Shown: positions 14,467 to 57,876, counted from the first letter of the stretch. The stretch is 64,000 nucleotides of DNA from Alphaproteobacteria bacterium (GCA_028278105.1 JANQEX010000043.1:1055-65054); one strand, 5' to 3'. A program made the numbers and translations. Notes: generated from the letters alone by a model not told the origin.

Positions 14467-15435
14467 CTAGCCTCCCCCGATGTCGTTCATGATAACGTCG
14501 GCGCTTTTCGGCTCGCCGACAACAAGGCGGATTTTCCCGGACCGGCCGCGATAAAGAAGATAGGGCGTGTGATCCACTTTCCATTTCTGGATGAGCGTGG
14601 TGTTGCCGGCCAGCGCCGTCATGTGTTCGGGAGCGGGCATCTTGTCCTTGAAGATTTCCGTATCGCCTGCCATGTATTTTTTCCAGGCGGACACCGGATC
14701 TTTCAGGCCAAGCCAGGCGGCTCCTTCCATCTGCGATTTCGCCCCCATGGCCGCGATGGGAAACAGCGTCACGCGCAGCTTGCCCTGATCCACAAGCGGC
14801 GCCAGCTTCTTCCAGGCGTTGTGACAGTGATGGCAGTTGACATCCATGATCATCACAAGCCGCGGCGCCTTGGGCGGCCCCAGGGTCACCGTCCGGCCGG
14901 CAAGAAGCTCGGCATAGAACTTCTCGGCCCCGCCGGAAGGCGCGGAAGCCTGTGGGACAGGCTGTCGCGGCACGGACGCGGCGGCCGGCATGCTCTCCCC
15001 TTTCAGAATGGCCTGAATCTCAGGCCGGCCATTGGCCAAGGCCAGAATCTGCTGCTGCGAGATATTCGCTCCTTCCGGCGAAAGCAGCGCCCCCACGATC
15101 AGCGCCTTTTGGCCGGGGGTGGTGTAGAAGATCTGCACCTGCCCGTCCTTTACCGCGAACCAGCCGTCAAGTCCGAGCGCCGGACCCAGGTAGTAAATCG
15201 TCGTTCCGGCGCGGCGCAGATTCTGCATGAACAGGATCGATGACGTATCGGGAACGCCCGTCGCGGCAGGCGGTTTTTCGGTCTCCACCGGCAAAGGCTC
15301 CGGCGCGGCGGCCTTTTCCGGCGAAGGCGGCGCGGCAGTAACGGGAGAGGCCGGCTTTTCCGCCTTTTTTTCCCCGGCCCACGCCGGCGCGGCCAGCAAA
15401 AGACTTGCAAAAGCAGGTATTAGAAAAAATCTCAT
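14467..15435 (-). CDS. Thioredoxin-fold thiol:disulfide interchange protein (TrbB/DsbC-like conjugal transfer protein)
   Basis: Signal peptide MRFFLIPAFASLLLAAPAWA and CxxC active site VNCHHCHNAW. Start set at the internal Met. The longer ORF-track version translates through a MITE copy. Confidence 0.6.
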   Translation of the reverse strand: MRFFLIPAFASLLLAAPAWAGEKKAEKPASPVTAAPPSPEKAAAPEPLPVETEKPPAATGVPDTSSILFMQNLRRAGTTIYYLGPALGLDGWFAVKDGQVQIFYTTPGQKALIVGALLSPEGANISQQQILALANGRPEIQAILKGESMPAAASVPRQPVPQASAPSGGAEKFYAELLAGRTVTLGPPKAPRLVMIMDVNCHHCHNAWKKLAPLVDQGKLRVTLFPIAAMGAKSQMEGAAWLGLKDPVSAWKKYMAGDTEIFKDKMPAPEHMTALAGNTTLIQKWKVDHTPYLLYRGRSGKIRLVVGEPKSADVIMNDIGGG

Positions 15436-15620
15436 GAACCGAGTCGCACAGAACCCCGTCACCCCCGCGAAGGCGGGGGTCCACGTTTTAAAACTTTTTA
15501 TTTTTGATAAAGGATCTGTAGCGTGGATGCCCGCCTTCGCGGGGGTGACGGTTCTTCTTGTAGAATGTGCCGGCCCAAAGAGCCCTTGGCATAACAGCAG
15601 TTTCCGCATGAAATTTCCCG
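15424..15620. mobile_element. MITE-like element copy 1 (28-bp near-perfect terminal inverted repeats GTCACCCCCGCGAAGGCGGGGGTCCACG)
   Basis: Arms at ~15458..15485 and ~15524..15551. Conserved flanks aaaaatctcatgaa... and ...ttcttgtagaatgtgcc...gcatgaaatttcc shared with the copy at 17170. Confidence 0.6.
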
Positions 15621-15668
15621 CTCCCGTATCCGATGGGGAAGTCACGGCGCGCCGGAGCGGAGGAAGGA

Positions 15669-16133
15669 TCACCGCCCGGCCACGCGCATGTTGCGTTTTC
15701 TGGAACGCGCGTCGCCATCATATTCAATCAGGCCCTGCCGGTCCATGGCGGCGATGACCTTATACGCATAGGCCGAGCCCAGCTTCGGCGTGGCTGAATG
15801 ATAGCGGGCGATGCCACCGAACAGGTTGCCGCCCGCGGCGTTCAGTTTTTGCTTCAGGATCCACGCCGCCACATGCAGGTTCACGCAGCCATCGTCGCGG
15901 ACCCATTTGCGGGCCGTTTTCCGGTCGACCTTCCAGTAGCGCGACAACTGGGGCAGCCAGTGGGTGTTGACCTGCATGGGACCAAGATCGTAGGTGCCGT
16001 TTCCATTCGGGCCCACTTCCTGGCCGATATGCCCGCCTTCCACGTTCAGAATGCCCACCATCACCTGCGGCGGCACGTCGTAGGCGCTGGACGCCATCAG
16101 GAGGCAGGCGGCGAAGACTTGAAGGGGAGTCAT
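15669..16133 (-). CDS. Lytic transglycosylase (SLT domain), specialised T4SS/pilus peptidoglycan hydrolase
   Basis: Signal peptide MTPLQVFAACLLMASSAYDV and GPMQVN motif. Start set at the internal Met to avoid overlap with the upstream gene. Confidence 0.7.
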   Translation of the reverse strand: MTPLQVFAACLLMASSAYDVPPQVMVGILNVEGGHIGQEVGPNGNGTYDLGPMQVNTHWLPQLSRYWKVDRKTARKWVRDDGCVNLHVAAWILKQKLNAAGGNLFGGIARYHSATPKLGSAYAYKVIAAMDRQGLIEYDGDARSRKRNMRVAGR

Positions 16134-16161
16134 GGGGCTTGGTCCATCCTCAGGGTTATTT

Positions 16162-17049
16162 CTAATTGTCCATGGCCTGCTCATCAAGCCGCGCCGATGA
16201 CGGCACATCAAGATAAGTGATCAGTGTGGCCAACATGGCCATGCGCTGGTCGAAGGACTGCCAGACAAAGGTTAACGGCGGGATCTGGTCATGCTCCTTG
16301 AAATAGGCGTCCCGCTCGTCCTTGTCCATGTAGAGCAGCCGGTCGGCCTCGGCGAAATGGCAGTCGGAGTAAAGGAAGCCGGCCGCCTGCAAGACGCTCC
16401 AGCACAAGAGACGCCAGTCGCGCGGTGTGCATCCGGCCGGGGCCAGCCCGCGCGTGACCTGGTCGGCCGTGCGCAAAATGCGCTCCGACACCTGCGCCAG
16501 CATCAGATGCTCGGCCCGGCCGAAGGAATATTGCGCCACGGCGTTCACCACCGGCACCAGCGCCTCCAGCATACGGGCGCGGAAGGTGCCAAGCGTGTTG
16601 GGCGCGTTTTCGCCCGGAGCCACGGCCTGGCTCTGGAATTTCTCTTTCGTCTCGAACACCGCCTTGGCCAGCGTGGCGGCCTCGTCGGGCGTGGGCGGCT
16701 GGCTCGTGGCGCGGAAACGCGCCGCCACCGCATGGGCGCCGGCCGCGATGATGTTCCAGCGCACGGCGTCCTCCACGGCTTCCCCGCCTTCGTTCAAGGC
16801 TTCCAGCGTGGTCTCGGCCAGGGCCAGGGTGGCTTCCACCAGCCCGGACAGAAGCTGGGATTCCTGCTCCGGCGAGGGCGGCTCGGCCGATTTCGCGGCG
16901 CGATGCGCCTCGGCGATCACCTGAAGCAACGGGGTAATCACATGCTTCATCACCGCGACGCGCGCATGCAGCTCCGCCCTGGAGCCGGAGACGGGCTTGC
17001 CTTCGGTATTTTCGTCGGGCTTGATGCTTTGAGCGGCGGGGTCGGTCAT
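16162..17049 (-). CDS. Hypothetical cytoplasmic protein (295 aa) in the T4BSS island
   Basis: Start MTDPAAQSIKPDE at 17049. No recognisable motif. Immediately preceded (minus strand) by the GAACCT/GGTTCGA repeat array. Confidence 0.4.
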   Translation of the reverse strand: MTDPAAQSIKPDENTEGKPVSGSRAELHARVAVMKHVITPLLQVIAEAHRAAKSAEPPSPEQESQLLSGLVEATLALAETTLEALNEGGEAVEDAVRWNIIAAGAHAVAARFRATSQPPTPDEAATLAKAVFETKEKFQSQAVAPGENAPNTLGTFRARMLEALVPVVNAVAQYSFGRAEHLMLAQVSERILRTADQVTRGLAPAGCTPRDWRLLCWSVLQAAGFLYSDCHFAEADRLLYMDKDERDAYFKEHDQIPPLTFVWQSFDQRMAMLATLITYLDVPSSARLDEQAMDN

Positions 17050-17060
17050 CAGGGAGGTGT

Positions 17061-17126
17061 GGAGGTTCGGAGGTTCAAAGGTTCGGGGGTGCGAGGGTAC
17101 GGGGGTTCGAAGGTTCAAGGGTTCAT
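17061..17126. promoter_or_regulatory. Array of GGTTCGA/GGTTCAA direct repeats immediately upstream of a minus-strand gene start
   Basis: ggaggttcggaggttcaaaggttcgggggtgcgagggtacgggggttcgaaggttcaagggttc. The same motif array recurs upstream of the icmL-like operon at 39383..39440. Confidence 0.4.
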
Positions 17127-17169
17127 TCTCCCTGAATATTATTAAGTTCCGGCTTCTTCCTGCCGAATA

Positions 17170-17350
17170 ATACCAAAAATCTTATGAAATGACTCACGGC
17201 TTGCACGAACTGTCACCCCCGCGACGGCGGGGGTCCACGCTTTAAAACTTTTGTTTCGATGGTTTTCCAGCGTGGCTGCCCGCCTCCGCGGGCATGACCT
17301 TTTTTCTTGTGGCATAGGTCCGTTCATAAGGCCGTTGGCATGATTTCCAG
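17170..17350. mobile_element. MITE-like element copy 2
   Basis: ataccaaaaatcttatgaaatgactcac...gtcacccccgcgacggcgggggtccacgc...gcgtggctgcccgcctccgcgggcatgac...ttcttgtggcat... Confidence 0.6.
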
Positions 17351-17379
17351 TTTCCAATCCATGCTTGGCTCAAGGGGTA

Positions 17380-17415
17380 AAGAAAAAGTTAAGGGCGGCT
17401 GGAGCCGCCCTTTTT
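17380..17415. terminator. Bidirectional rho-independent terminator
   Basis: gggcggctggagccgccc stem with TTTTT on the plus side and AACTTTTTC on the minus side. Confidence 0.5.
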
Positions 17416-17423
17416 AAAACACA

Positions 17424-17499
17424 GGGGACACAATAAAATGCGCAAGGACAGAGGCGCCCCAAAAGCAGCACACCCGCCGGCGCATTTTATTGTGTCCCC
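17424..17499. repeat. Perfect 20-bp inverted repeat with 36-bp spacer
   Basis: ggggacacaataaaatgcgc (17424..17443) and gcgcattttattgtgtcccc (17480..17499). Confidence 0.7.
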
Positions 17500-17509
17500 G
17501 TCGCTTCTA

Positions 17510-17550
17510 TTGCCCCCAAAAATTAGGGCGGCTTCCGCCGCCCTTGAACC
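17510..17550 (-). terminator. Rho-independent terminator after the 580-aa gene
   Basis: gggcggcttccgccgccc hairpin. The minus-strand reading is followed by TAATTTTTGG. Confidence 0.45.
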
Positions 17551-17572
17551 ACGCGCCCATGGCAGAAACGCG

Positions 17573-19315
17573 CTACCGCCCCGGCGCGGAAACAAGAATG
17601 GCCTTGACCTGCGGCATATAAGAAGGCTCCTCGACCTCCGGGGCCGAGGCACGGACCACGGCCGGGCGGCCATTGTCATCGTCAACAAACCCGTCGCCCG
17701 GCACCGCCACGGCGGGGATAATGCCGCCCTTCATGCCGACGCCCGCCATGGCGAACATCTGCGCGAGCGAAGCGGATCTTTCGAAGGATTCCGGCGCGGC
17801 CCAGCCACGGCCCGAAGCCGGGCTCTCCCCCGGCCTGCCGCTATCGGCGTACATTGTTGTCCCGTCGCCGTAGAATTCATGGATGACTTCCGCAATGATC
17901 CTGTCCTGTTCGGCATGCCATTCATGAAGCTTGCCGCGCACGGCAAGGCGCAATTTCTTGAATTCAGGCGATTCAAGCATGGCGATGAATTTGGGGTCTT
18001 CAAAGCGCCAGAGCCGGGCCATATTCACGCCAGCACTCAACCCTGCCCCTAAGGCTATACTTCCCCCCCCGGCAATCGAATTAAGTATATCAAGGTTCTT
18101 TTGAGCATAGGAAGCTGCCGCATTGTTTTTTGCGAAAGCCTGCCCTTTTCCTGACTCCGGCGCGTTTGAATTGTCGGCATATCTATTCATGGCCGCAGTG
18201 GCCTCGGCCAACTCGCGGTTGGAACGGCATTTTTCCTTGCTTGCCTTGTATCCAACGCTTTTACGCATATCCTCCGCATGCTGGTGTGACTTGTCGCATT
18301 GTGGCAAGGAGAAATCATCTATTAGAGCATCAACTATGTTATTAATGACTCCTGCGCAATAGGTCCTGTGCATAAGTCTTGCATAATTTTCAGTTTTACC
18401 CATGGGAGTTTTCGCGCGGTCATCCCAATTTAAAGACCCCGTGGGGGGGCACCGCCCCGCAGCCGCAGCCAAGACCGCGCTCAATTTCTTTCCGCCTTTT
18501 AGCGGAATATTCTTTCCCTTCGCAAGGCTGGGATTAATACCCCAAAGCTTCACGCTGTCTTCCCCATCACCGCCACTGCCGCTATCACCGCCTTCCAGCT
18601 TGGCTATGTCAAGCGCCTCTCCGGCATCCTCAACAAGCTTTGCCCATGCTATTGCAGTGCCATCCGCGCTTTCTTTGTGTGAATTTAATTCCTCGAAAAT
18701 TCTAGTTAAAGATTTGTGTACAGCTGCGGGGATATTCATGTTCTGCTGCGCGGCTTTCGTCATGGTGCGCGCGCGGGATTCCGCCGGGTGGTCCGTCTTG
18801 CCGCCGCCGGTTGCAACCAGAATGAGCCCCGCGGGCGATATCAGCCCATGCGTCTCGATATTGGCAAAACCACCACCGCCATCGTTGTAAGGCAGCTTGT
18901 AGGTCTTGGCCAATTCATAACTGCGCGTGCGCATCAACTCGTGACGTTCGTTGTCCTGGGCGTATTCCAGCCGCTCGCCCTTCATCTGGGCATCGGCCAT
19001 GATCTGGGAATTGGTTGAAGCGTGCCCGCGGGGTTGGTCATCTGTATTCGTGTTCAATCTCGAAACGGTAGAATCCGTATTTTCTGAAATGGTGTTCAGA
19101 AGCTTTATCATCTCTGCCTGCGATGGCAGCGTGGCTGGAGGTCCTGCCAACGGGCGACCTTTATATTTACCATGGGGATCACCGTTTCTCTCTGTATACC
19201 CTCCATGGCTCCCGGCGCGGCTTGCCAGCAACGTTTCAGGCAGGGCAAGTCCGGCAACAAGAACGATTACAACGGAAACGCGCACGTAAATACGAAGAAG
19301 GGCGGATTTTTTCAT
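17573..19315 (-). CDS. Hypothetical N-terminally membrane-anchored protein (580 aa), large secreted or periplasmic region
   Basis: MKKSALLRIYVRVSVVIVLVAGLALPETLLA signal anchor with GGGAGG RBS. A low-GC stretch lies inside (~18050..18420). No recognisable family. Confidence 0.4.
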   Translation of the reverse strand: MKKSALLRIYVRVSVVIVLVAGLALPETLLASRAGSHGGYTERNGDPHGKYKGRPLAGPPATLPSQAEMIKLLNTISENTDSTVSRLNTNTDDQPRGHASTNSQIMADAQMKGERLEYAQDNERHELMRTRSYELAKTYKLPYNDGGGGFANIETHGLISPAGLILVATGGGKTDHPAESRARTMTKAAQQNMNIPAAVHKSLTRIFEELNSHKESADGTAIAWAKLVEDAGEALDIAKLEGGDSGSGGDGEDSVKLWGINPSLAKGKNIPLKGGKKLSAVLAAAAGRCPPTGSLNWDDRAKTPMGKTENYARLMHRTYCAGVINNIVDALIDDFSLPQCDKSHQHAEDMRKSVGYKASKEKCRSNRELAEATAAMNRYADNSNAPESGKGQAFAKNNAAASYAQKNLDILNSIAGGGSIALGAGLSAGVNMARLWRFEDPKFIAMLESPEFKKLRLAVRGKLHEWHAEQDRIIAEVIHEFYGDGTTMYADSGRPGESPASGRGWAAPESFERSASLAQMFAMAGVGMKGGIIPAVAVPGDGFVDDDNGRPAVVRASAPEVEEPSYMPQVKAILVSAPGR

Positions 19316-19326
19316 GGCTGGCCTCC

Positions 19327-20298
19327 CTATCTCTGCCAGGGCATGCCGGTTGCTTCCGGCGAAACTGTTACCGAGACCGGCCATGCGATGATCGGAGCCA
19401 TACCATCCGGCCCGGACACGTTCTTATATTGAGGCGGCTTGATCCATTTATTCGATGAAGCGCTGCCGCCGCCGCATTTGAACCAGAATTCCTGCGTCTC
19501 GCATTCCTCGCCTTCGCGTTGTTGAACCTTTTTCACCTTGCTTTTGTTTTGCCCGCCCTTGTTGGGACGTGTTTTGACTGATTTCGGCCCATCCAATTGT
19601 TGCTCGTCGCGCGTTTGCGCCAGCTTCTTCATGCCCTTGGTGACTTTTTTGGCCGATTCATCACCACGGCAGTTTGCGCCATGGACCGCGCCCTTGCAGG
19701 TCCTGTCCATGTGGTTGTCTCCGTCAGAAAAACCACCCAACGCCTTCATCAATGCCCCCATCGCTCCCTGCACAGGAATATATAATTGCCTGTCGGGTTT
19801 TACGGGTCCGGCATCCGGGCGGAAAACCACCTTTTCAAAAACCGCTTTGGCACGCGGCGCATCGGTCTTCGTCCTGACCACGCAAGCCATGACCTGGCCA
19901 TCGCCAAGGCTGGCTTCAACATAAGCGGGCGCGCTGTTTCTGTTGCCGTTGAACAGGCCCTTGAATGTCGTCAGAATTTTTTCAAGTCCGGAATCATAAT
20001 CCGCAACCATGATTTCCTGGTTGCCATTGGCCGGGCTTTTTCTTGACGATCCGTCCACCCCGGTAATTTCTTTTTCCGTGCCACCATCCGCGTCCTTCCT
20101 TGAGGGATAGGCCGCGAACATTTTCGCGGCAAAATTCACCTCTTTCTTATAGGCTTCCTTAAATGCGCTATTGATGGCTTGGGACTCCTCACTATCTATG
20201 CCGGGGCCCCCAGCAAAAAGCGGGGGAGGAGTAAAGGCGGCGATGCAAAAAAAAGCGGCAAAAAGGGCCAGGAAGGCGAAAGACGGTTCCTTCTTCAT
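19327..20298 (-). CDS. Hypothetical secreted protein with Lys-rich C-terminal region
   Basis: MKKEPSFAFLALFAAFFCIAAFTPPPLFA signal peptide. The whole gene sits in a low-GC segment. Confidence 0.4.
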   Translation of the reverse strand: MKKEPSFAFLALFAAFFCIAAFTPPPLFAGGPGIDSEESQAINSAFKEAYKKEVNFAAKMFAAYPSRKDADGGTEKEITGVDGSSRKSPANGNQEIMVADYDSGLEKILTTFKGLFNGNRNSAPAYVEASLGDGQVMACVVRTKTDAPRAKAVFEKVVFRPDAGPVKPDRQLYIPVQGAMGALMKALGGFSDGDNHMDRTCKGAVHGANCRGDESAKKVTKGMKKLAQTRDEQQLDGPKSVKTRPNKGGQNKSKVKKVQQREGEECETQEFWFKCGGGSASSNKWIKPPQYKNVSGPDGMAPIIAWPVSVTVSPEATGMPWQR

Positions 20299-20499
20299 GA
20301 AAACCCCCTGCAATTTTAATAAATCTCGATGAATTTGCTACCAAACCGTTAACAACCGCTTAATTTACTTGCAAGGATTCAAGGCTTTCTGGCGGGGGTT
20401 ATCCACGGGAAAAAATGGGTGAAAGCAGTGACAAGGAAAAAAACCGGTAAACCCGGCTTTCACCTTCCCGCCTTCTGATTTCCGGCCTCTGACTTCTGA

Positions 20500-22011
20500 T
20501 TACTGAACCGGGAAGTCCTGCCGGATGGGAGGCAGCATGGCGCCGGGGGAGGCATGGGCGGGAGCGGGGCCGGAAGGCGGCGCGGCATCCTTTGCTTCGG
20601 ATTCCGGACCGGATTCGGTCAGCCGCGCCGCGACGCTTTCCGCCCGCATGTTGGGCTGATGCTTCCGCTTCCTCGCCCGCGCTTCCAGCGCGCGGGGCAG
20701 TTTCTCCGACGCCGCTTCCAGCGCGCGCGTCAGCCTGCGGATTTCCTCCATCAACTCGCGCGTGGTGTTTTCGGAAATTTCTCCCTCTCCCACCGGCCTG
20801 TCGCCGCGGCGCGGCACAATATCATAATCATCTTCCTTCGCGGCCAGCGCAGCGGCATGCAAAATCTTGTTGTGCTCCGCGATGCGCGCGTCAATGCGCT
20901 CCTCAAGCTCCAAACCAAAAAGCTCCAGCTCCGGGGGCGTTCTTTCGCCTTTCGTGCCCAATTGGGCCCTGCGGTCACGAATATTCATCCCGACATTGCG
21001 CTGCCAGCGGCTGAGGCAATAGCCCTTGGGCGGCCGCTCCATGCCATGCCCGTGCGTGAATACGTTCAAAAGCTCCTCGTAAGACCCGGCGTTGTTTTTT
21101 CCACAGTCTTTCAAAATCTTGTCCGAGGGACACATGTGCCAGCTAAGCGCGATGAGGATCGGGTTGATTTTGGCTAGCATGCCCGTCATGGCGCTTAGAA
21201 TACCCGTGTCGTCCCTGATGCCGCCGGCCGTATCCAGCTTTCTTCCGGCGGGGCGGGGCTCATGCAACTCCATCCTCAGGCGTATGTGCAAAAGCGCCAC
21301 CATCATCTTGCGCATGTGCGGGTCGGAAATCTTGTATTCGTCCTTGGTAAGAAAATTGTGCAGTTCGACCTTGATTTTTTCGGGATCATACGGGAGGCAC
21401 CAGGTATCCAGAATCGCGCGCGTGAGCGATACATCGGCGCCTTCAACATCGTTCCATGGCTGGTTTGGATTTGTCTTTATCTCAACATCACAGCCGTCGC
21501 GCTTGCCCATGGCGCCCAGATTGCACAGGGCCTTTCGTATTTTCCGCGCGCCAATCGCGGTTCCCGAATCGGGGGATGAAAACAGCCCGACGGCGAAGAA
21601 GTGCGCCACCTGATTCCGGAACTTCTTTTCCAAGGCGTCGCGCGCCACATCGTCCCGGCCCCAGGTTGCGAGCGCGCAGGCGTAATTCGATCCCGGCCCA
21701 AGTTTGGCGCGAAGCGCCGCCGCCGCAGCCTTGCGTTCCGCCTCGTCGATGGCGTCAATGGTGGCGCTTGTGCTTCTTTCCATCATCCCGGCAAGGGTTT
21801 TCATTCCGCTGACCGTGGCGGCCGTGTTCGAATTGATGCCCTGAAACAACTGGTTTACGGCGCCGATCAGGCTGCCGAAGATGCTGTTCAACGTTCCCAG
21901 CAACGCGCCCACGGCATTGTCGGCCCGCGCCGGCGCCGGCATGGCGCAGGCCAGAAACACGCCCAGAACCACCGCCGCCACGCTTCCCGGACCATTCGTG
22001 CGAAACATCAT
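20500..22011 (-). CDS. Hypothetical secreted protein (503 aa)
   Basis: Signal peptide MMFRTNGPGSVAAVVLGVFLACAMPAPARA. Several conserved-looking Cys residues. No family recognised. Confidence 0.4.
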   Translation of the reverse strand: MMFRTNGPGSVAAVVLGVFLACAMPAPARADNAVGALLGTLNSIFGSLIGAVNQLFQGINSNTAATVSGMKTLAGMMERSTSATIDAIDEAERKAAAAALRAKLGPGSNYACALATWGRDDVARDALEKKFRNQVAHFFAVGLFSSPDSGTAIGARKIRKALCNLGAMGKRDGCDVEIKTNPNQPWNDVEGADVSLTRAILDTWCLPYDPEKIKVELHNFLTKDEYKISDPHMRKMMVALLHIRLRMELHEPRPAGRKLDTAGGIRDDTGILSAMTGMLAKINPILIALSWHMCPSDKILKDCGKNNAGSYEELLNVFTHGHGMERPPKGYCLSRWQRNVGMNIRDRRAQLGTKGERTPPELELFGLELEERIDARIAEHNKILHAAALAAKEDDYDIVPRRGDRPVGEGEISENTTRELMEEIRRLTRALEAASEKLPRALEARARKRKHQPNMRAESVAARLTESGPESEAKDAAPPSGPAPAHASPGAMLPPIRQDFPVQ

Positions 22012-22020
22012 GCCCGGCTC

Positions 22021-22557: not shown

Positions 22558-22699
22558 AAGGCCAGTCCTTCTCTATCTCCCGATACGGTTTCCACAGCTA
22601 CCAAACCCGCTTTAACGAAGGCTTAACGCGCGTTAACCACGCCTCGCCGCGTTGCTTTTAAAGCCCCTCCCTCTGGAAGAGGTAATTGGGGGGCATGGG

Positions 22700-22768
22700 G
22701 GGTCGCAAGGGTCATGAGGGTCTTCTTTTGTTGACCCTGATGACCCTTCCGGCCCTCTCGACCCTTAC
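22700..22768. repeat. REP-like hairpin of the GGGTCATGAGGGTC family
   Basis: aagggtcatgagggtcttcttttgttgaccctgatgacccttccggccctctcgaccc. Relatives at 49036..49105, 60085..60180 and 60243..60310. Confidence 0.6.
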
Positions 22769-26934: not shown

Positions 26935-29900
26935 CTACCCGTTGGGCGAAGCCGAACGCGAGCCGCTGCCGGCCGCGTCCTTCTTGTTGCCCGTATCCAT
27001 CTTGCGATCCCTGGCCATTGACGTGGCCTGCTGCACCGACTCCCGGATTTCCTGAATCACGTAATTGGCCAGCTCGTCGACCAGTTCCTGCATCACCGCC
27101 TGCTGGGCGTTGGCGGACAGTTCGCCCTTTTCGGTGCGCACCACCACGCGGCGGCGGATTTCGAACCGCGCCGTGCCGCCCGGAAACACTGTAGCAAGAA
27201 GCTTGCGGGCGCGGATCGCGCCAATCCTTTCATAGAGGCGGTTGCGCACCACCACGTCCTCGGCCGAGGTGGACAGCGCCCATAATTCCACCGGTCCCAG
27301 CGTATTCACCAGATGCTGCTCATAGCGGCCTTCGGTGGTGGACAGGATGAACAGCACCGGCGCGCCGGAAGGCTTCGGACCGGTCAGGCGGTAGCGCATC
27401 ACCCAGCGCGCGGTCTCCGACAGCGAGAAGCGGTTGCCCGCGTCCTGAATGGCGCGCTCGGACGCCGTGGAGCCGCAGATCCAGATGCCGGTGGCGAGGT
27501 CGATCATGTCGGCGGTGAAGTCGGTGAGAAGCTGCGAGGCCAGCACGATCTGCACGCCCCATTTGCGGCCTTCGCGCACGTCGCGGATGAGCTGGGCGCG
27601 CACGGCGAAGCTGTTGGCGGTGCGGTGGAACTCGTCGTAGCAAAGCCGTTTCGGGATTTCGCGGATCTCCTTCAGCCGCGCGTCGTGATAGGGCCGGTAG
27701 CGGGCCGGCACGTTGCGCAGGGCGTCGGGATTCAGCCACCACGCGCGGATCATCACGTGGCGTGCCAGCATGTACATGATGGCGGTCTGGCGGTCGGCCG
27801 AGGCGTCGCCCTGCGGCGAGACTTCCTGCAAATCCACGGAGCAGACGCGCGCCGCGCCCACGTCGAACTTGGTCACCGTGGCCAGAATGGGAAATTCGCG
27901 GATGGCCGAGGCGATCATGCGCTCGAACGCGTGAATGATGCCTTCGGCGCTGGGGCCGATGGCCGTTTCCTCAAGAAAGGCGCGGATCTGGGGCCGCCGC
28001 GCGGCCGTCACGGCGTCCACCAGCGTGGGCACCGCGTGGCGCTGGGCCAGCATGGCCTCGAACACCGCGCCCGCGTCAAACAGGGCGTCCACGACTTCCC
28101 ACCAATAGGGCTCCGGCGGCAGGTTGAGGTTGAGGCGCTTCACCGCGTCGTCCACGCGGGGGTCGATCAGCTCCAGATAGGGACGCGGCTCGGCGCTGGC
28201 CTCGGCGTCGTCGCGCCACCTGAACATCTCGTCGACGCAGAAACCCACAAGCTGCGTCATGCCGTCATAGGGCATGTCCTGGCCCGGCGGCGTGCAGATC
28301 AGCGTGAGCAGCTCCACCAGATAGGCGCGCTCGTCGGGCAGGGGATGGCGGCAGCCCAACTGGGTGTCGAAGGGATTGACGGCGAATTCCGGCGTCATCA
28401 GCAGGCGGAAATGCATCGCCTCCTGACGGCGCTCGGCGGGCAGCGCGTCGCGGATCAGCGAGATCAGCCCCGCCGAGGACGGCCCGATATCCAGAATGGC
28501 CACGAAAGGAAGCTGGCTCATGCCCGCCGACAGGATCGTGCCAAGGTTCATCGCGTTCATCAGCACCGATTTGCCCGAACCCGGCTGGGCGAAGATCAGG
28601 TCGAACCAGGTGGTGGTCAGCGGCGTGCCGGTCTGGTAGGGCCAGATGCGCCCGTCGGGCGTGCGCAGGATCACCGCCCCTTCGGGGAAGGGCGACGAGG
28701 CGCGCTGCCAGGGAAACATCTTCACGCATTCCATCAGCGGCGCCACGCCCGGCGTGGCAGTGGACGAGCAGGAAATGCCCAGGGCCGACGACATCACCGC
28801 TTCCAGCGGGTCGCCGCAATTGATGGCCACCTGGCAATAACCCCAGGATTCCGCCGCCTGCATCAGGTTGGCCAGGCGCGTTTCGATCAGCCGCTTGTCG
28901 TTCTGGTAGGCCGCGTAGTCGCAATAGGTGGCAAAGGACAGGCGCAGCTTCACCACCGGCTCGCTCTTCGAGAGCAGGATCAACTCGTTCAGCGTGTTCT
29001 TGATCTGCCGGTTGACGCTGTTCGAGAACGTCAGAATGGCCGAGGCCAGCTTGCGGAAGGATTCCCCCGCGACGCCGCCGCTTTCGATCAGGAAGGAGAT
29101 GCGAAACGGCATGTCCGCCTCGATCAGGCGGTTGAGGATTTGCGGAAAGGGCGAGGCGTCGGACGGCCCCAGGCTCATGTCGGTGGCCGCCCATACCAGG
29201 TCGCCGACGCGGACGATGTTGGGCCCCAGCACCTCGGCATCCATCGGGCAAAGCTGCTGCGCGATGGAGGGCCAGAGAATATCCGACCAGTCGCGCCTGT
29301 AGCGCGAGCGCCGCGGCGGGATCGGATCGCCCGGCACGCAGGCTTTCCACTTGTCGTTGGACAGCGAGGGATAAACGCTATCACGCACGGCGCGCAAGGC
29401 TTCGTGCACCTCCATCACATTGGCCACGATGCCAAGCTCGAACAGCGATTCCGCGATATTGGCCACGAAGGCCCTGTGCTTCAGGCGCAAGGGCTCCAGC
29501 GCCGCATGCGGAAACTGGGCATTCTTGGCGGGCGGCCATTTGATGTCGCGGCGCAGCTCGCGGGCGCGCTTGAACTCGTTCTTGGTCAGGCCCGAAGGCC
29601 GGGTCCAGAGCGCGATGAATATTTCCTCATAGGCCAGATAGCGGGACAGGTTTATCTTGCGCTCCCGCAGAAGGTCGTCCAGGTTCAACTCAATCGCGGA
29701 TGCCGCGGCGCGGTTGGGAGCCATCAGCTTTTCCAGCGTGGCGCCGATGCGGTCGGGATCGCGCAGAAAATAGAACTGCATCGCGTGGCCAAGGCGGTCG
29801 AACCGCGCGCCGAGTTTCAGCGTGGCCTGGTCGACGATCCATTTGTATTCCTCGCCGCCGATCATCTGGCGCGCGCCGCTCACCCGCAGATAGCTGACCA

Positions 29901-30027
29901 GCGATCCGTCACCCGAAACCATCGACTGGGCGTCGTCGGAGGTCTCCAGTTGAATGAAGGATTCCACCGGCTGCTTCAATTGCAGCAGGAAGGCGGCAAA
30001 AAGTTCATCCAGAAAACTGAGCAGCAT
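26935..30027 (-). CDS. icmB: DotO/IcmB (TraU-like) VirB4-family T4BSS ATPase
   Basis: 1030 aa. Walker A AQPGSGKSVLMNAM. Size typical of IcmB/DotO. Confidence 0.75.
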   Translation of the reverse strand: MLLSFLDELFAAFLLQLKQPVESFIQLETSDDAQSMVSGDGSLVSYLRVSGARQMIGGEEYKWIVDQATLKLGARFDRLGHAMQFYFLRDPDRIGATLEKLMAPNRAAASAIELNLDDLLRERKINLSRYLAYEEIFIALWTRPSGLTKNEFKRARELRRDIKWPPAKNAQFPHAALEPLRLKHRAFVANIAESLFELGIVANVMEVHEALRAVRDSVYPSLSNDKWKACVPGDPIPPRRSRYRRDWSDILWPSIAQQLCPMDAEVLGPNIVRVGDLVWAATDMSLGPSDASPFPQILNRLIEADMPFRISFLIESGGVAGESFRKLASAILTFSNSVNRQIKNTLNELILLSKSEPVVKLRLSFATYCDYAAYQNDKRLIETRLANLMQAAESWGYCQVAINCGDPLEAVMSSALGISCSSTATPGVAPLMECVKMFPWQRASSPFPEGAVILRTPDGRIWPYQTGTPLTTTWFDLIFAQPGSGKSVLMNAMNLGTILSAGMSQLPFVAILDIGPSSAGLISLIRDALPAERRQEAMHFRLLMTPEFAVNPFDTQLGCRHPLPDERAYLVELLTLICTPPGQDMPYDGMTQLVGFCVDEMFRWRDDAEASAEPRPYLELIDPRVDDAVKRLNLNLPPEPYWWEVVDALFDAGAVFEAMLAQRHAVPTLVDAVTAARRPQIRAFLEETAIGPSAEGIIHAFERMIASAIREFPILATVTKFDVGAARVCSVDLQEVSPQGDASADRQTAIMYMLARHVMIRAWWLNPDALRNVPARYRPYHDARLKEIREIPKRLCYDEFHRTANSFAVRAQLIRDVREGRKWGVQIVLASQLLTDFTADMIDLATGIWICGSTASERAIQDAGNRFSLSETARWVMRYRLTGPKPSGAPVLFILSTTEGRYEQHLVNTLGPVELWALSTSAEDVVVRNRLYERIGAIRARKLLATVFPGGTARFEIRRRVVVRTEKGELSANAQQAVMQELVDELANYVIQEIRESVQQATSMARDRKMDTGNKKDAAGSGSRSASPNG

Positions 30028-30243
30028 GACCCACGGCGCCTTGACGGACAGGCCCGGCCGGAAAGCCGCGCATGCCCAAGGGACCCCGGAATCGGGGCCT
30101 TCGATTCGGAAATTTTACCGTAGGGACAAAGCCTTAACTGAAAATGAACGCGGCTTCGGATTGCAAGCCTTGCGTCATCCTCCCTATCAAGGAATCTTTT
30201 AGATAACCATTTGTTAAATAATGATTTTGTGTCCCGTAATACA

Positions 30244-30480
30244 AACAGTCTCATGAAGTGACTCATCCCGAAAGCACGGACCGTCACCCCCGCGAAGGCG
30301 GGGGTCCACGCTTATAATCTTCTGATTTATTTGGATTTAAGCGTGGATGCCCGCCTCCCTGCTTCGCCTTCGGCTACGCAGGGCGCACTTGCAAAAAGGC
30401 CCGGCGTAGCTTTAGCGAAGACGGGTCGCGGGCATGACGACTCTCCCTATGGGATAGATCAGTTTACAAGACCGTTAGTA
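30244..30480. mobile_element. MITE-like element copy 3 (same TIR, with a ~70-bp insertion inside the right arm)
   Basis: acaaacagtctcatgaagtgactcat...gtcacccccgcgaaggcgggggtccacgc ... gcgtggatgcccgcctcc[insert]gcgggcatgacg. Confidence 0.55.
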
Positions 30481-30592
30481 TAATTGTGTACACAAATCGT
30501 GCCCTCTGTATTATCATGATCTTTAGTAGGGATGAAAGAAAAATAGCGCGGGGATGCCCGCCATGTCATTACGGCCTGGAAAGTAGGAGAAC

Positions 30593-30895
30593 ATGGCAAA
30601 AGAAGATACAAGGCGTTATTCAAGAAGCGCGCTCGCAAGGATGAAGGCGCGGGGTGACCTGCGGGCCACGCCGTCCGACGCGCCGGAGATTGAGCTTGAC
30701 GAAGCTTTCTGGGAAAGGGCCCGCATTGTTGAAACGCGCCCGCGCCGCAAGGAATCGGTGCATCTGCGGCTTGACGCCGAAACGCTGGATTTCTACCGCG
30801 CCGCCGGCCAGGGTCATCTGACGCGCATGGCCAATATCCTGAAAGCCTATGCGGAGAGTCATGACAAACGCCGGCCGCGCGATGGCAACGCCTGA
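30593..30895 (+). CDS. BrnA-like (RHH/CopG, DUF4415-type) antitoxin, orphan
   Basis: 100 aa, ...VHLRLDAETLDFYRAAGQGHLTRMANILKAYAES. No BrnT-like toxin ORF is adjacent. Opposite orientation to the surrounding T4BSS genes. Confidence 0.55.
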   Translation: MAKEDTRRYSRSALARMKARGDLRATPSDAPEIELDEAFWERARIVETRPRRKESVHLRLDAETLDFYRAAGQGHLTRMANILKAYAESHDKRRPRDGNA

Positions 30896-39382: not shown

Positions 39383-39440
39383 GAGAGGTTCGAGGGTTCG
39401 AAGCTGCGTAGGTTCGAGGGTTTGTGGGTTCGAGGGAGGG
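39383..39440. promoter_or_regulatory. GGTTCGA direct-repeat array upstream of dotI operon start
   Basis: gagaggttcgagggttcgaagctgcgtaggttcgagggtttgtgggttcgaggg. Same motif as at 17061..17126. Confidence 0.4.
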
Positions 39441-39502
39441 TTACGCCTGTTCTCAAGCCCCGGACGTCATTCTCCCCGCAGGCCCGCGCACCCTCGTACC
39501 CA

Positions 39503-39805
39503 CGAACCTTCGAACCTAATTAAATATCGTTACCGAGTGATTAACTTCGAAAGGTTCGAAGGACCGGAGGGACGAGGGTTCGAAGGAAAAACAAGGCCTG
39601 ATTTCGAAGAAGAATCTTCTTCGTCCCTTCGAACCTCCGAACCTTCGAACCTAATTAATATCGCTACCGAGTGATTAACTTCGAGAGGTTCGCAGGTGCG
39701 GAGGGACGAAGGTTCGAAGAAAAAACGAGGCGGAGCCACGAGAAACAAGGCCTGATTTCGAAGAAGAATCTTCTTCGTCCCTTCGAACCTCCGAACCTGC
39801 GAACC
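39503..39805. repeat. Two tandem copies of a ~136/167-bp unit with internal palindromes
   Basis: Each unit: cgaaccttcgaacctaattaa(a)tatcg(t/c)taccgagtgattaacttcga...ggagggacga(g/a)ggttcgaag...aaggcctgatttcgaagaagaatcttcttcgtcccttcgaacctccgaacct. Unit 2 carries a 15-bp insertion. Confidence 0.75.
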
Positions 39806-39810
39806 TTGTT

Positions 39811-42710: not shown

Positions 42711-43295
42711 ATGTCCGACACATCCGGCCCCTCCCCTCCCGACGATCCCGAAAAGCGTGATTTTATCTTCATCACCGCGGGCGCGCTGGGCGCGGTCGGC
42801 GCCGGGACGCTGGCCTGGCCTTTTTTGGCCTCGCTGGGGCCCGCGGCCGACACGCTGGCGCTCTCCACCACCGAGGTTGACGTCTCGAAGATCGCGCCGG
42901 GGCAGGCCATCACCGTCATGTGGCGCGGCAAGCCGGTCTTCATCCGCCACCGCACCGGGGCCGACATCAAGGCCGCGACCGCCGTTGACGGCGATTCCGC
43001 GCAATTCAACGCCCTGCGCGATCCGCAAACCGACGCCGCGCGCACGGCGCAATCCAAAATCAACGGCAAGCCCGCGCCGGAATGGCTGGTCATGGTGGGC
43101 GTCTGCACCCATCTGGGCTGCATCCCCCAGGGGCAGAAACCGGCCGACAGGAAAGGCGATTTCGGCGGCTGGTTCTGCCCCTGCCATGGATCGAGCTACG
43201 ACACGGCCGGACGCATCCGCAAGGGACCCGCACCGAAAAATCTTGCCGTGCCGCCCTATGTTTTTCTTTCCCCTGGCCGGATAAGGATTGGATGA
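42711..43295 (+). CDS. petA: Ubiquinol-cytochrome c reductase iron-sulfur (Rieske) subunit
   Basis: Rieske boxes CTHLGC and CPCHGS. Start at MSDTSGPS (ATG at 42711). Confidence 0.9.
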   Translation: MSDTSGPSPPDDPEKRDFIFITAGALGAVGAGTLAWPFLASLGPAADTLALSTTEVDVSKIAPGQAITVMWRGKPVFIRHRTGADIKAATAVDGDSAQFNALRDPQTDAARTAQSKINGKPAPEWLVMVGVCTHLGCIPQGQKPADRKGDFGGWFCPCHGSSYDTAGRIRKGPAPKNLAVPPYVFLSPGRIRIG

Positions 43296-43554
43296 GTGAA
43301 AAACGACGTGTGAAGAGTGACAAGGTGAAGAGTGAAAAGTGGAAAGCGGAAAACGAACGGCGTCATCCTGGAAACCGCCGCCGGCGGTTATCCAGGACCT
43401 CTTTCCCTTAAAAGCACAAGATTCCGGATAAGGGCTCGCCTCCGCTCGCCCTTTCCGGAATGACGGTTTTGAGACAGGCCCCCAGGCTCCTTCTTTCCGC
43501 TTTCCACTCTTCACTCTTCTCTTTCCACTCTGTCACCCAAACCGCCCCGACCCC
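43296..43554. repeat. Structured intergenic element between petA and petB (long imperfect inverted repeats flanking internal hairpins)
   Basis: Left arm gtgaagagtgacaaggtgaagagtgaaaagtggaaagcggaaaa. Right arm ttctttccgctttccactcttcactcttctctttccactctgtcac. Internal hairpins tcctggaaaccgccgccggcggttatccagga and ttccggataagggc...gccctttccggaa. Confidence 0.7.
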
Positions 43555-45599: not shown

Positions 45600-45648
45600 A
45601 CCGGAAACGTCTTTTCCGGCTTCGGGTCCCTGACCCCTGGTTTCCGAA

Positions 45649-47037
45649 TCATTCCAGCCCCGCATGCCCGGTCCTGATCGCCACCAGGGTGGAGGCCAGA
45701 TAGACAATCACCGGCGCGCGCAAGGATTCGTCGGTGCGTTCGGCGGCGCGCAGCGCGGCCTGGAAACTGCGCCGCCAGCGGCTGTCGCTGCCGCCCATGG
45801 CTTTTTCGGCGCGGGCTTTTGCCGCCAGCGTCATGGCCCGCTCGGAATCCTGCAAGGGACCGGTCATCAGGTCCATCAATTCGCCCATCCAGCCGGCCCT
45901 GTTGGGATCGTCCTCCGGCGAAGCCGCGATCAGCGCCGCCAGCGCGACGGCCTTGCGTGACGTATCGCGGGATGCGCCGATCAGTTCATGCGCCACGTCG
46001 CCGTCGCCGCGCCGGGCCAGAAGGGTGATGGCGCCCACGAAAGAGGCCGGGTCCTGTTCCACGTCGCGCGCAAGACGAAGCGCCGCTTGCGGCTCGTCCA
46101 CCATGGCGGCGGCCAGAACCAGCGCGGGCGGCGTGCCGTCCCGCGCGGAAAACATGCCGCCCTGCGGCACGATCCGGTCGTAAAGCGCGCGCGCGTCACG
46201 CTCCATCCCGCCAAGGCTCAGCGCCTGGACAACCATCCCCTTTTGCCAGTCGCAATGATTGGCTTCCGCCTCGTCGCGGATCTGGATGGCAAGGTCCCGC
46301 GCGCCGGCATCATCATCGCGCGCCGCAAGCTGCCGCAGGGATTCCAGCATGAGCGACAGCCGCCCGTCGCAATCGGCGATGCGCGCGCCCACCTGCCGGG
46401 CCTGCTCATCGGCGCCGGTCATCCGCAGGGCGCGGGCCAGCAGGGCGTAAGAATCCGGACCCGGCGCGCCGGCGCCGGCCTGGCGCAGCAACGCCATGAA
46501 CGGCAAAATCATGCTCCGGGCGCGCGCGTGCTGGCCGTTGGCGTCATAGGCCACCGCCACGCCCAGCCAGTCGGCATGGGCCTGCGTCAAAGGCAGATCA
46601 GCCGGCGGAAGCATGTTTTCGAGCCGGTAAAGGAAACAGGCCCCGGTCTGCGGGCCGGTGGCGCTGGTGATGCCGTAGCCGGAGAGGAAATCCTGCACAT
46701 TGTTGCCGCGTTCGCAGGCCAGCGCCCGGACGCGGTTTTCAAACGCGACCACATCGAAATCGCCGATCATCTGCCGGGTGGTGAGCTGCACGGCGATCAT
46801 GCTCTGCGGATGGCGCGTGATGATTTTTTTCAGGAGCTGGTCCGCATTGCGCAACAGGCGCACCGATTCCCGCGTATCATAGGTCGTGTCGGCGCGGCCG
46901 ACCTGTTGTACCGCTTCCACGAACAGGCGGTTGGCTTCGGCGTCGGCATCGGCGGCATGCAAAGGTGCTGGAAGCACCACGGCCAGCAGAAAAGCCGGCG
47001 CCAGAAAGCGCAACGGAACGGGAAAAGGCTCGAACAT
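45649..47037 (-). CDS. Hypothetical secreted protein (helical-repeat-like, Ala/Arg-rich)
   Basis: 462 aa with signal peptide MFEPFPVPLRFLAPAFLLAVVLPAPLHA. Confidence 0.4.
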   Translation of the reverse strand: MFEPFPVPLRFLAPAFLLAVVLPAPLHAADADAEANRLFVEAVQQVGRADTTYDTRESVRLLRNADQLLKKIITRHPQSMIAVQLTTRQMIGDFDVVAFENRVRALACERGNNVQDFLSGYGITSATGPQTGACFLYRLENMLPPADLPLTQAHADWLGVAVAYDANGQHARARSMILPFMALLRQAGAGAPGPDSYALLARALRMTGADEQARQVGARIADCDGRLSLMLESLRQLAARDDDAGARDLAIQIRDEAEANHCDWQKGMVVQALSLGGMERDARALYDRIVPQGGMFSARDGTPPALVLAAAMVDEPQAALRLARDVEQDPASFVGAITLLARRGDGDVAHELIGASRDTSRKAVALAALIAASPEDDPNRAGWMGELMDLMTGPLQDSERAMTLAAKARAEKAMGGSDSRWRRSFQAALRAAERTDESLRAPVIVYLASTLVAIRTGHAGLE

Positions 47038-49035: not shown

Positions 49036-49105
49036 AGAGTCACAAGGGTCATGAGGGTTTTTGTTTACGACCCCCCTTGACCCTTGTGACCCTCATGGCC
49101 CTTTC
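49036..49105. repeat. REP-like hairpin (GGGTCATGAGGGT family)
   Basis: cacaagggtcatgagggtttttgtttacgaccccccttgacccttgtgaccctcatggccc. Confidence 0.55.
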
Positions 49106-49141
49106 GCAAAATCCTGTTTCTTTACTCCCTTCGGTCAGGCC

Positions 49142-49435
49142 TCAGGCCCACACGCCCAGAACCGCCGTGGTTTCCGCCGCCGCAACCGCCTCAACGCCTT
49201 CGGGAAGAACGGGAGCCGTTTCACTGCGAATGCTTATGTAATAATAATCCGGGTCGCCGCAGGCTGGTATCTCCACCGCCTCGCCATCGTCCCCCGTCAG
49301 GGTCATGGCCGGCGTTCCGGCCCGCGGGCCAAGCACATTGGGGTAGGCGGCGGCGAAAGCCAGCGCTTGCAGGTTTTGCGTCTTGGCGTGCGTATCGATC
49401 ATGTTTCCTCCTGAAGCGGTTCCGGGTTCAGGCAT
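49142..49435 (-). CDS. Small hypothetical protein
   Basis: 97-aa ORF with no motif. Coding status uncertain. Confidence 0.25.
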   Translation of the reverse strand: MPEPGTASGGNMIDTHAKTQNLQALAFAAAYPNVLGPRAGTPAMTLTGDDGEAVEIPACGDPDYYYISIRSETAPVLPEGVEAVAAAETTAVLGVWA

Positions 49436-49501
49436 GTTATATGCCCTCGCCTGTTCTTCCGGCAGGGCTTTCCGTTCTGTAAAAAAATTTCTTTAAAAAA
49501 C

Positions 49502-51106: not shown

Positions 51107-51195
51107 AAGGACTGCTCACCCCGGTCGCCGGGAAGGCGGGGACCGGAATGAGCAATCTTTGCTTTCCGAATGGGTTTTTCAGCATACCACCCCGC

Positions 51196-56615: not shown

Positions 56616-56672
56616 GCCGGCTTTGTAAGGCAGAACCGCCCGCCGATCAACCGCGGGGCAAGCGCTGTTTGC

Positions 56673-57038
56673 TTAAACGGACCGTAAAACAAGCCGCAAT
56701 TGACGGTCGGCGCCTTGCGCCACCGGGCTGGCCGCGGCGCCGGAGCGAACGCGCAGATATTGCAGGGAAGAAAACTGCGCCGGGTCCAGCACGAAGCAGC
56801 CTCCGGCGGAAGCCGTCACGGTTATCTCCGCGCCATCCTGATTCTTCAGGTCGGCCCAGGCCGCGCCCGCGTCCGGCGACATCTGGAAAGTCAGGTCCGC
56901 CGCGGTCCAGCCGGACGGCATGACAATGCCGAACAGGCGCAGGCCGCCCAGATCCAGCGTACCGGTCAGCGACGCGCCGTTGGCGATGGTGGCGGGAAGA
57001 ATCTCCCAGGGGGAATTGCAGCTATCCTTGAGTGACAT
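56673..57038 (-). CDS. Hypothetical small protein
   Basis: Start MSLKDSCNSPWEIL at 57038. The longer ORF-track version has an Arg-rich, non-native-looking extension. Confidence 0.3.
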   Translation of the reverse strand: MSLKDSCNSPWEILPATIANGASLTGTLDLGGLRLFGIVMPSGWTAADLTFQMSPDAGAAWADLKNQDGAEITVTASAGGCFVLDPAQFSSLQYLRVRSGAAASPVAQGADRQLRLVLRSV

Positions 57039-57406
57039 GGTTCTCCTCCTGTCGGGTTTTGTTGAATTGCGGTTTACAGGGCGGCGGCCCCATCCCTTCG
57101 CGCCCTTGGACGCAAGGGTTCGCCCGCCGCGACAAGGCAGGCGGGTGAAAATCAAACGGATCGTTCTGGAAATTGCCGGGCTCCGGCGTCTTTCTTCGGG
57201 CAAGGCTTGGGCCCGTCATTGTCAATACGCCCGCGCAAGGCGCCGCGTCAAAACAATAGTTTTTTATAAGAGCGAAAGCGGAGAAAAGGTTAAGGCGACA
57301 AAAATTCGCCACATATTTCGTATTTTTGTAACCCTCCGGCTTGCCGGCACGGGCCCGCCGCCGCCCGCGTGGGACCGGGCATCGAAACCAGAAGGGAAAA
57401 CCGGCC

Positions 57407-57640
57407 ATGAGCAACATAAAAACACAAGACCGCGACATTGAAAAAACCTACGCCACGGCGCAATTCGTGGAAAAGCTCCGCAGGTTGGCCGACTGCCTGG
57501 AAAAAGGCGAACGCTTTGACATTCAGATTGCGGGCGAACGTGTTTATGTGCCGAAAGACGCCATTTTCAATATCGAGCACGAACGCGGCGACGGCGCGGA
57601 GGAAATCGAATTCCAACTCAAATGGAGTAACAAAACCTAG
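57407..57640 (+). CDS. Small conserved hypothetical protein (amphi-Trp-domain-like, 77 aa)
   Basis: MSNIKTQDRDIEKTYATAQFVEKLRRLADCLEKGERFDIQIAGERVYVPKDAIFNIEHERGDGAEEIEFQLKW. Confidence 0.4.
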   Translation: MSNIKTQDRDIEKTYATAQFVEKLRRLADCLEKGERFDIQIAGERVYVPKDAIFNIEHERGDGAEEIEFQLKWSNKT

Positions 57641-57690
57641 CCGCCTTGTTGCTGGAATCCGGCTAAGGCGTCGGGGCCAATCGACAATTA

Positions 57691-57876
57691 ATACCAAAAG
57701 TCTTATGAAATGACTCATCGCGTCACCCCCGCCCCCGCTTTTCCGCCTCCGCAAGCTTCGGCGTGACGAAAAGGTAAAACCTCGGCGTAGCCGCAGGCGA
57801 AGCCGGGCGCGGGGATCGGCTTCGGCGGGGGCCCATCCTTTTTTCTGATTTCTGATTTCCGGCTTCTGATTTCTGA
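57691..57876. mobile_element. MITE-like element copy 4 (variant: conserved left flank, divergent core, ttctgatt tail) abutting tRNA-Ala
   Basis: ataccaaaagtcttatgaaatgactcatcgcgtcaccccc... then ...ttttttctgatttctgatttccggcttctgatttctga. A related tail module occurs at 20440..20510. Confidence 0.5.

Follow-up and report, generated by a model that had tools for sequence, protein, structure and literature searches.

What are the four short palindromic repeats in a 64,000-nucleotide (nt) stretch of Alphaproteobacteria bacterium DNA (GCA_028278105.1, JANQEX010000043.1:1055-65054) that includes a Dot/Icm secretion system cluster? An earlier note on this stretch, called the window below, had described them as a family like miniature inverted-repeat transposable elements (MITEs), with 28-bp terminal inverted repeats (TIRs). 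Judged by their sequence, the four copies are built round a hairpin of the known NTS/dRS3/SRM class, and they are a known kind of genomic repeat rather than a new transposon. The MITE-like description held insofar as the elements are small, noncoding, palindromic, and inserted (they are missing in relatives), but their ends are not those of a DDE-type transposon.

The window contains three full copies and one half copy, each at the place where it had been reported. The copies share one plan, consisting of a left box, hairpin A, an AT-rich spacer, an inverted hairpin A', and a right arm. Hairpin A (plus strand) and hairpin A' (minus strand) face each other over the spacer, which is 30 to 35 nt long. 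Positions are counted from the first nt of the window.

15418-15605, plus strand: copy 1, 188 nt; left box 15418-15446, hairpin A 15457-15485 (plus), spacer 15486-15520, hairpin A' 15521-15550 (minus), right arm 15551-15605
17168-17355, plus strand: copy 2, 188 nt; left box 17168-17196, hairpin A 17211-17239, spacer 17240-17269, hairpin A' 17270-17299, right arm 17300-17355
30237-30486, plus strand: copy 3, 250 nt; left box 30237-30265, hairpin A 30282-30310, spacer 30311-30340, hairpin A' 30341-30438 with its loop interrupted by a 68-nt insert, right arm 30439-30486
57689-57838, plus strand: copy 4, a half element; left box 57689-57717, 5' half of hairpin A 57722-57732, GC-rich DNA resembling family B (see below) 57733-57823, possible 3' half of the hairpin 57824-57838

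Searching the window for the left box (AAARTCTYATGAARTGACTCA) at ≤3 mismatches gave 3 matches, versus none in 100 shuffles. A fourth left box, that of copy 1 (repeat family D9), is more diverged (21/29 positions) than the shared left flank of the earlier note suggests. The hairpin core matched 4 times in the window, versus 1.1 expected. A repeat finder also tied the copies together, by families D3 (right arm), D5 and D8 (hairpin A plus spacer), and D9 (left box). Of the shared plan, copy 4 has the left box and 11 bases from the start of hairpin A (GTCACCCCCGC), with no A' and no right arm. The TTCTGAT repeats (57842-57876) reported on its 3' side, next to the tRNA-Ala gene (57878-57953, minus strand), are present, but the right repeat is absent.

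Rather than plain transposon ends, the 28-bp TIRs are each palindromic in themselves (CCCCCGC-GAAG-GCGGGGG), forming a self-complementary dRS3/NTS/SRM hairpin, and the palindrome continues for ~33 nt past the hairpins on either side. When single arms were folded as single-stranded DNA, 4 of the 5 intact arms closed a GAAG loop with an 8-bp stem (−10.4 to −11.9 kcal/mol); the fifth, which is A' of copy 1, was weaker, with a 5-bp stem and −6.1 kcal/mol. Pairing between left box and right arm is seen in copies 2 and 3 and is partial in copy 1. A look at secondary structure, suggested in the earlier note, bore out the palindromic nature of the family, as the entire composite folds as one long hairpin (z-scores of −6.3, −6.9, and −9.1 versus shuffles). 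A and A' start 59 to 64 nt apart and form a hairpin, so the doublet has the architecture of a REPIN (two inverted REPs <130 bp apart that form a hairpin) or of a NIME.

The outer arms are imperfect inverted repeats of each other, matching at ~20/30 positions, and the differences between left and right recur identically in every copy. The copies therefore descend from one ancestor unit that was already asymmetric. Identity between copies was 93 to 100% for hairpin A, 59 to 74% for the left box, 57 to 66% for the spacer, 49 to 68% for the right arm, and 67 to 73% for the whole element. From this uneven conservation we conclude that the copies are old and that the hairpin has been constrained far more than its surroundings. 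No target-site duplication was visible, the flanks of copies 1 to 3 being without a direct repeat, with the exact ends uncertain by a few bases.

The class to which the hairpin belongs is known from Neisseria. The Neisseria dRS3 repeat is ATTCCC-N8-GGGAAT, its longer form, called NTS, is CGTCATTCCCGCGMAVGCGGGAATCYRG, and a degenerate "Ssn-related motif" (SRM) covers relatives of NTS in many phyla (PMC11893778). SsnA, a single-domain GIY-YIG protein of 94 amino acids (aa), binds and cuts NTS only as single-stranded DNA and on only one strand, and the bases that are most important for cutting and binding are a GTC upstream of the palindrome and a C right after it (PMC11893778). Among ssnA homologues, 71% have such motifs flanking or near them (PMC11893778). 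The hairpin consensus in the window is CGTCA-YS-CCCGC-GAAG-GCGGG-SR-TCCACG, and the window hairpin, CGTCACCCCCGCGAAGGCGGGGGTCCACG, differs from NTS only in a covarying stem step and in one additional tail base. All intact arms retain the upstream GTC and the C right after the palindrome. The published SRM regular expression, HGTCWYN(0-2)YYVSBRHN(0-5)WNVSBRGN(0-2)RNCYNB, exactly matched the arms at 15457 (plus), 15523 (minus), and 30282 (plus), plus one unrelated site, with 0.4 matches expected from simulations of the window; the remaining arms miss it by 1 to 2 bases or through the loop insert. The total of 6 arms in 64 kb, versus about 0.4 to 1 expected, refers to the window and is not a genome-wide value. 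The window hairpin fits the NTS/SRM class in its sequence and also in its hairpin structure.

The same hairpin is widespread. A scan of one genome per species with GTCAYSCCCGCGNNGGCGGGSNNCCACG as the query gave at least 118 loci, in Alpha-, Beta-, and Gammaproteobacteria, Planctomycetes, Acidobacteria, Chloroflexi, Hydrogenedentes, and Desulfobacterota (at least 8 phyla or classes). A looser pattern gave at least 208 hairpins among the loci listed (~0.9 Mb), and the following results are for these listed matches. The two variable stem positions were complementary in 194 of the 208 hairpins (TC/GA, TG/CA, TT/AA, or CC/GG), a compensatory variation that supports the stem. Neighboring hairpins formed 42 convergent doublets, the type found in the window, as well as 14 divergent and 9 tandem pairs. 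Across genomes the hairpin alone was conserved; inside one genome, the spacer was conserved also. Stem subtypes were mixed in 30 of the 42 doublets, but this was about the level of random pairing (our own estimate from subtype frequencies), and no inference was drawn from it.

We examined the same loci for candidate enzymes. Open reading frames (ORFs) encoding GIY-YIG proteins of 92 to 99 aa (PF01541, E = 1e-11 to 1e-16) adjoin or separate the hairpins in L043, L116, and L010, and L035 has a truncated one. No recurrent gene family or transposase was found beside the motif, the largest ORF cluster being present at 10 of the 118 loci listed. The cognate transposase (IS630/Tc1, IS5, or other) envisaged in the earlier note thus failed to appear, either in the window or at these loci. 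Neither a regular expression for the HUH and Y motifs nor tblastn with E. coli RayT, a distant query, detected a RAYT in the window or in the ~0.9 Mb surrounding the 208 listed hairpins.

Taking these results together, we consider it probable that the copies are non-autonomous palindromic repeats of the REPIN/NIME type, with an inverted NTS/SRM hairpin doublet as the core, that are recognized in trans. The hairpin would extrude in single-stranded DNA and would be recognized by a sequence-specific protein encoded elsewhere in the host. The likeliest candidate for this protein would be a GIY-YIG Ssn nuclease of ~95 aa, with a RAYT as the alternative, and its recognition of the hairpin would drive the spread or retention of the motif. 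The unit copied in this lineage would be the 188-nt composite, comprising the outer arms, the spacer, and the two hairpins. Effects on neighboring genes, such as a long stable RNA or DNA hairpin at operon junctions or the start codon of a DsbG-like gene (see below), would be by-products and not the purpose of the elements.

A strict REPIN reading, in which a RAYT (Y1/HUH) encoded elsewhere mobilizes the doublets and Ssn is uninvolved, as proposed for the Neisseria 21-mer, is in our judgment unlikely. Its attraction is that ATTCCCGCGCAGGCGGGAATC is the Neisseria REPIN master sequence, which Bertels and Rainey linked to Group 2 RAYT (bioRxiv 10.1101/2021.07.10.451892), and that an inverted doublet with a spacer conserved within the genome is the definition of a REPIN. 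However, it was GIY-YIG genes and not RAYT motifs or homologues that we found at the listed loci (subject to the distance of the E. coli query), and the published association of ssnA homologues with flanking SRMs also points to Ssn.

Several observations weigh against REPIN/NIME-type repeats recognized in trans, even in the broader form that we prefer. The published role of Ssn is the cutting of incoming single-stranded DNA (PMC11893778), and Ssn is not known to mobilize repeats. The window has neither an Ssn-like GIY-YIG gene nor a RAYT, although this is unsurprising because it is only 64 kb long. The 3.5 known copies are old (67 to 73% identity) and do not point to current mobility. Finally, the composite may be restricted to this lineage, perhaps even to this part of the genome, as the left box was found nowhere else that was searched. 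It was in none of the 118 genome loci listed, and its 5 matches in the JGI metagenomes were all chance matches in DNA of 37 to 39% GC. In other collections, the plasmid search gave no match to the element, and Rfam gave nothing at gathering thresholds and only generic, sub-threshold hairpin matches at relaxed thresholds. Six-frame translations of the element, compared with proteins, matched only the over-extended gene of the window and one other sequence weakly; such short peptides cannot reach significance in the database used.

A comparison of syntenic Dot/Icm loci, reached via homologues of DotB and of the 296-aa gene that neighbors copy 2, bears on how the elements came to be in the window. 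The relatives compared were as follows.

L125-L129: DotB 88 to 89% identical, 49% GC
L130 and L131: neighbor gene 80% identical, 57% GC
L132: neighbor gene 74% identical, 57% GC

None of the loci L125 to L132 has the element or a CCCGC-N4-GCGGG hairpin. At the site of copy 1, the gap between the TrbN-like and DsbG-like genes is 16 to 42 nt in the relatives versus 233 nt in the window, where it is almost wholly element; the gap at the site of copy 2 is 165 to 248 nt in the relatives versus 454 nt in the window. Because the elements are missing at the orthologous sites of the relatives, they were gained in this lineage by insertion. They are not a conserved component of Dot/Icm regulation. An apparent likeness of the left box to native upstream regions of L125, L128, and L130 received no support from blastn at E < 0.1. 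Among Dot/Icm clusters with 88 to 89% identical DotB, GC content ranges from 49% to 62%, with the repeat-rich window the highest, which is a large compositional shift among close relatives.

The genes next to the copies differ in part from those originally named. They are as follows.

14467-15672, minus strand: 401-aa ORF reading through copy 1 (over-long form of the DsbG-like gene)
15669-16211, minus strand: TrbN-like transglycosylase gene, beside copy 1
16162-17052, minus strand: 296-aa gene, beside copy 2
17573-19384, minus strand: 603-aa gene, beside copy 2
26935-30027, minus strand: IcmB-sized gene, beside copy 3
30593-30895, plus strand: BrnA-like gene, beside copy 3
57341-57640, plus strand: amphi-Trp gene, its 3' end beside copy 4 and convergent with that of tRNA-Ala (minus strand)

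There is no trbB-like neighbor; copy 1 is flanked by the TrbN-like and DsbG-like genes. The neighbors of copy 2 are the 603-aa and 296-aa genes. Copy 4, lying between two convergent 3' ends, is not promoter proximal. The BrnA-like gene, across copy 3 from the IcmB-sized gene, encodes an antitoxin of the BrnA type (PF14384, E = 1e-11) and has no recognizable BrnT toxin gene upstream.

The clearest effect on a neighboring gene is at copy 1. Alignment with orthologues placed the start of the DsbG-like gene at MRFFLIPAFASLLLAAPAWA, giving a product of 322 aa, and the probable ATG (15435-15433, minus strand) falls within the left box of copy 1. Both the 401-aa ORF and a public protein of 380 aa (P0241) have starts within or beyond the element and read through copy 1, and this read-through by an over-long ORF is the source of the peptide VTPAKAGIHATDPLSKIKSFKTWTPAFAGVTG. 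The earlier note was right to call that peptide an artifact; it is the minus-strand reading of copy 1.

These data also bear on a second alternative, that the elements are a conserved cis-regulatory cassette of Dot/Icm operons, with an outward extended −10 in the left box and the hairpin signaling processing or termination. In its favor, three copies out of four lie in intergenic DNA of the Dot/Icm cluster and have the same orientation relative to the genes, the left box on the minus strand ends in TGGTATTAT (copy 2) or TGGTATTAA (copy 4), both resembling an extended −10, and that of copy 1 holds the probable start codon just described. However, three of four copies in the cluster is no enrichment, because the cluster fills ~2/3 of the window; copy 4 is outside it and points into a gene end; and the elements are missing from the syntenic clusters of all relatives examined. 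The −35 beside the extended −10-like sequence is poor, the promoter scan made no call at the left box, and no T-run follows the hairpins on the transcribed strand. We therefore regard this alternative as improbable, and a regulatory role of the elements, where there is one, is probably incidental. A lesser, novel reading is that the composite may be a portable cassette that supplies Dot/Icm genes with a start codon or promoter. The true terminator-like hairpins are separate, at 17391-17412 and 17525-17544. Intrinsic-terminator and CRISPR readings were rejected on sequence grounds, and an integron attC reading was rejected because neither right end (GTTGGCA or GTTAGTA) matches GTTRRRY and no cassette array is present.

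That the elements are classical MITEs derived from a DDE transposon (IS630/Tc1, IS5, or similar) is very improbable, for although they are small and intergenic, with terminal inverted repeats, an AT-rich center, and presence/absence polymorphism relative to relatives, no copy has a target-site duplication, each "TIR" is an internally palindromic hairpin found across phyla with unrelated interiors, no recurrent transposase gene lies beside the 208 listed hairpins, and the window has no partner insertion sequence.

Returning to REPIN/NIME-type repeats with an NTS/SRM core, we found that the hairpins themselves can be interrupted. The insertion of ~70 bp that had been noticed in the right TIR of copy 3 is real; it is a 68-nt GC-rich palindrome, designated family B, at 30359-30426, and it is located in the hairpin loop, in the middle of the GAAG tetraloop of A'. 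This insert lengthens the stem coaxially (−30 kcal/mol, z = −3.7). Family B, with the core ..CTTCGCTAAAGCTACGCCGGG.., occurs also at ~59755-59835 and ~59995-60075 in the window and in L092 (5663-5857), and a doublet in JACQAB01, an unrelated metagenome-assembled genome from groundwater, carries family B at the same loop position (L076 3393-3480). Further loop inserts were found in L004, L012, L095, and L107 (4 loci in 3 further genomes); the search detects only inserts that leave both half-stems intact, so this count is biased. A related insert (57733-57823) may interrupt hairpin A of copy 4, but the fold of this copy is no better than shuffles (z = −0.2). Tentatively, the loop of the NTS/SRM hairpin might be a specific landing site for family B repeats, a proposal to which we give little weight. 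If true, it would mean hairpin-loop-targeted insertion and nesting of noncoding elements, which is undescribed for the NTS/SRM motif.

The elements can be compared with four known systems. They share with NTS/SRM (PMC11893778) the order of GTCA, a 2-nt variable step, CCCGC, a 4-nt G-rich loop, GCGGG, the complementary step, and TC, as well as the upstream GTC and downstream C that give orientation, occurrence in many phyla, and small GIY-YIG genes beside some loci. Unlike the Neisseria NTS, the stem step here is CC/GG or TG/CA instead of TT/AA, the tail is TCCACG instead of TCYRG, there is no ssnA in the window, and the host is an alphaproteobacterium-like Dot/Icm carrier with 62% GC. This host is not known to be naturally transformable, so the role of NTS in Neisseria may not be transferable to it. 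Like NIMEs and REPINs (bioRxiv 10.1101/2021.07.10.451892), the elements have two inverted hairpin repeats round a short variable segment, are strictly intergenic, and form a doublet whose spacer is conserved within but not between genomes. In contrast to NIMEs and REPINs, the palindrome extends ~33 nt beyond each hairpin, asymmetric left and right boxes are conserved across copies, the copies are diverged instead of forming a tight population round a master sequence, and no RAYT was detected.

Correia elements (CREE) and other MITEs are likewise noncoding palindromic inserts of ~100 to 200 nt in operons and promoters that can form a long RNA hairpin, and they too may donate promoter-like or start-codon sequence. 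However, the TIRs of the Correia elements, which are known from Neisseria, are plain and 26 bp long, with duplication of a TA target, whereas here there are hairpin repeats, no duplication, and a cross-phylum motif. The E. coli REP and BIME sequences, recognized by host or RAYT proteins, resemble our elements in being imperfect palindromes of alternating orientation in intergenic DNA, but their sequence is unrelated, and BIMEs are confined to particular species, whereas the present hairpin is conserved across phyla. Overall, the elements depart only modestly from a known class, namely in their larger palindrome of 188 nt, in how far the copies have diverged, and in their nested inserts.

The interest of the elements is mainly practical, as hairpin repeats of this kind give spurious or over-extended gene calls, such as P0241 and the 401-aa ORF. 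In addition, they place long stable palindromes in the operon junctions of a Dot/Icm secretion system, extend the known hosts of the recently described Ssn/SRM system to a Dot/Icm-bearing lineage of high GC content, and show the motif inside a larger palindromic unit and bearing nested inserts. If the host has an Ssn nuclease, it would be a further place to study Ssn function beyond the naturally competent Neisseria.

Some minor observations were made on the hairpins of other genomes and on further repeats. In genomes of Planctomycetales, Luteimonas, and Dehalococcoidia, 2 to 4 tandem copies of the 5' half alone, plus ~8 nt (for example, GTCATCCCCGCGACTTGACC three times), stand ahead of a full hairpin, suggesting that cut-and-copy or slippage recurred at a fixed loop position. 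The sites are as follows.

L006, ~7240: tandem 5' halves
L067, ~3160-3210: tandem 5' halves
L068, ~5576-5596 and ~3472: tandem 5' halves
L104, ~3970: tandem 5' halves

In the window, the two terminator-like hairpins beside copy 2 are a near-identical inverted pair (AAGGGCGGC..GCCGCCCTT, 17391-17545) that encloses a perfect 20-nt inverted repeat (17424-17443 and 17480-17499). This region looks like another palindromic module, of ~155 nt.

Many intergenic regions of the window contain tandem arrays of 7- to 9-nt units, such as GGTTCGAR, GGGTCATRA, GTGAAAAG, and TTCTGATT. Usually there are two arrays, inverted round a short spacer and giving long imperfect hairpins, and the unit varies by site; two of the arrays abut copies 2 and 4. 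We know of no described family that resembles these inverted arrays, which are at the following positions.

17061-17129: array
20464-20509: array
22700-22755: array
39384-39806: three inverted pairs of arrays
43294-43536: array
45614-45650: array
49036-49093: array
57842-57886: array
59057-59093: array
60093-60164: array

An 88-nt direct repeat, 94% identical, is present at 10650-10737 and 11437-11524; in it, the 3' end of dotB is duplicated ~790 nt downstream, past an IcmT-like ORF. Finally, a 630-nt intergenic region (59702-60330) consists almost entirely of assorted palindromic repeats, and within it is a perfect 22-nt inverted repeat, TCCCCTCCCCTTGAGGGAGGGG and CCCCTCCCTCAAGGGGAGGGGA (59873-59996), whose arms are 80 nt apart.

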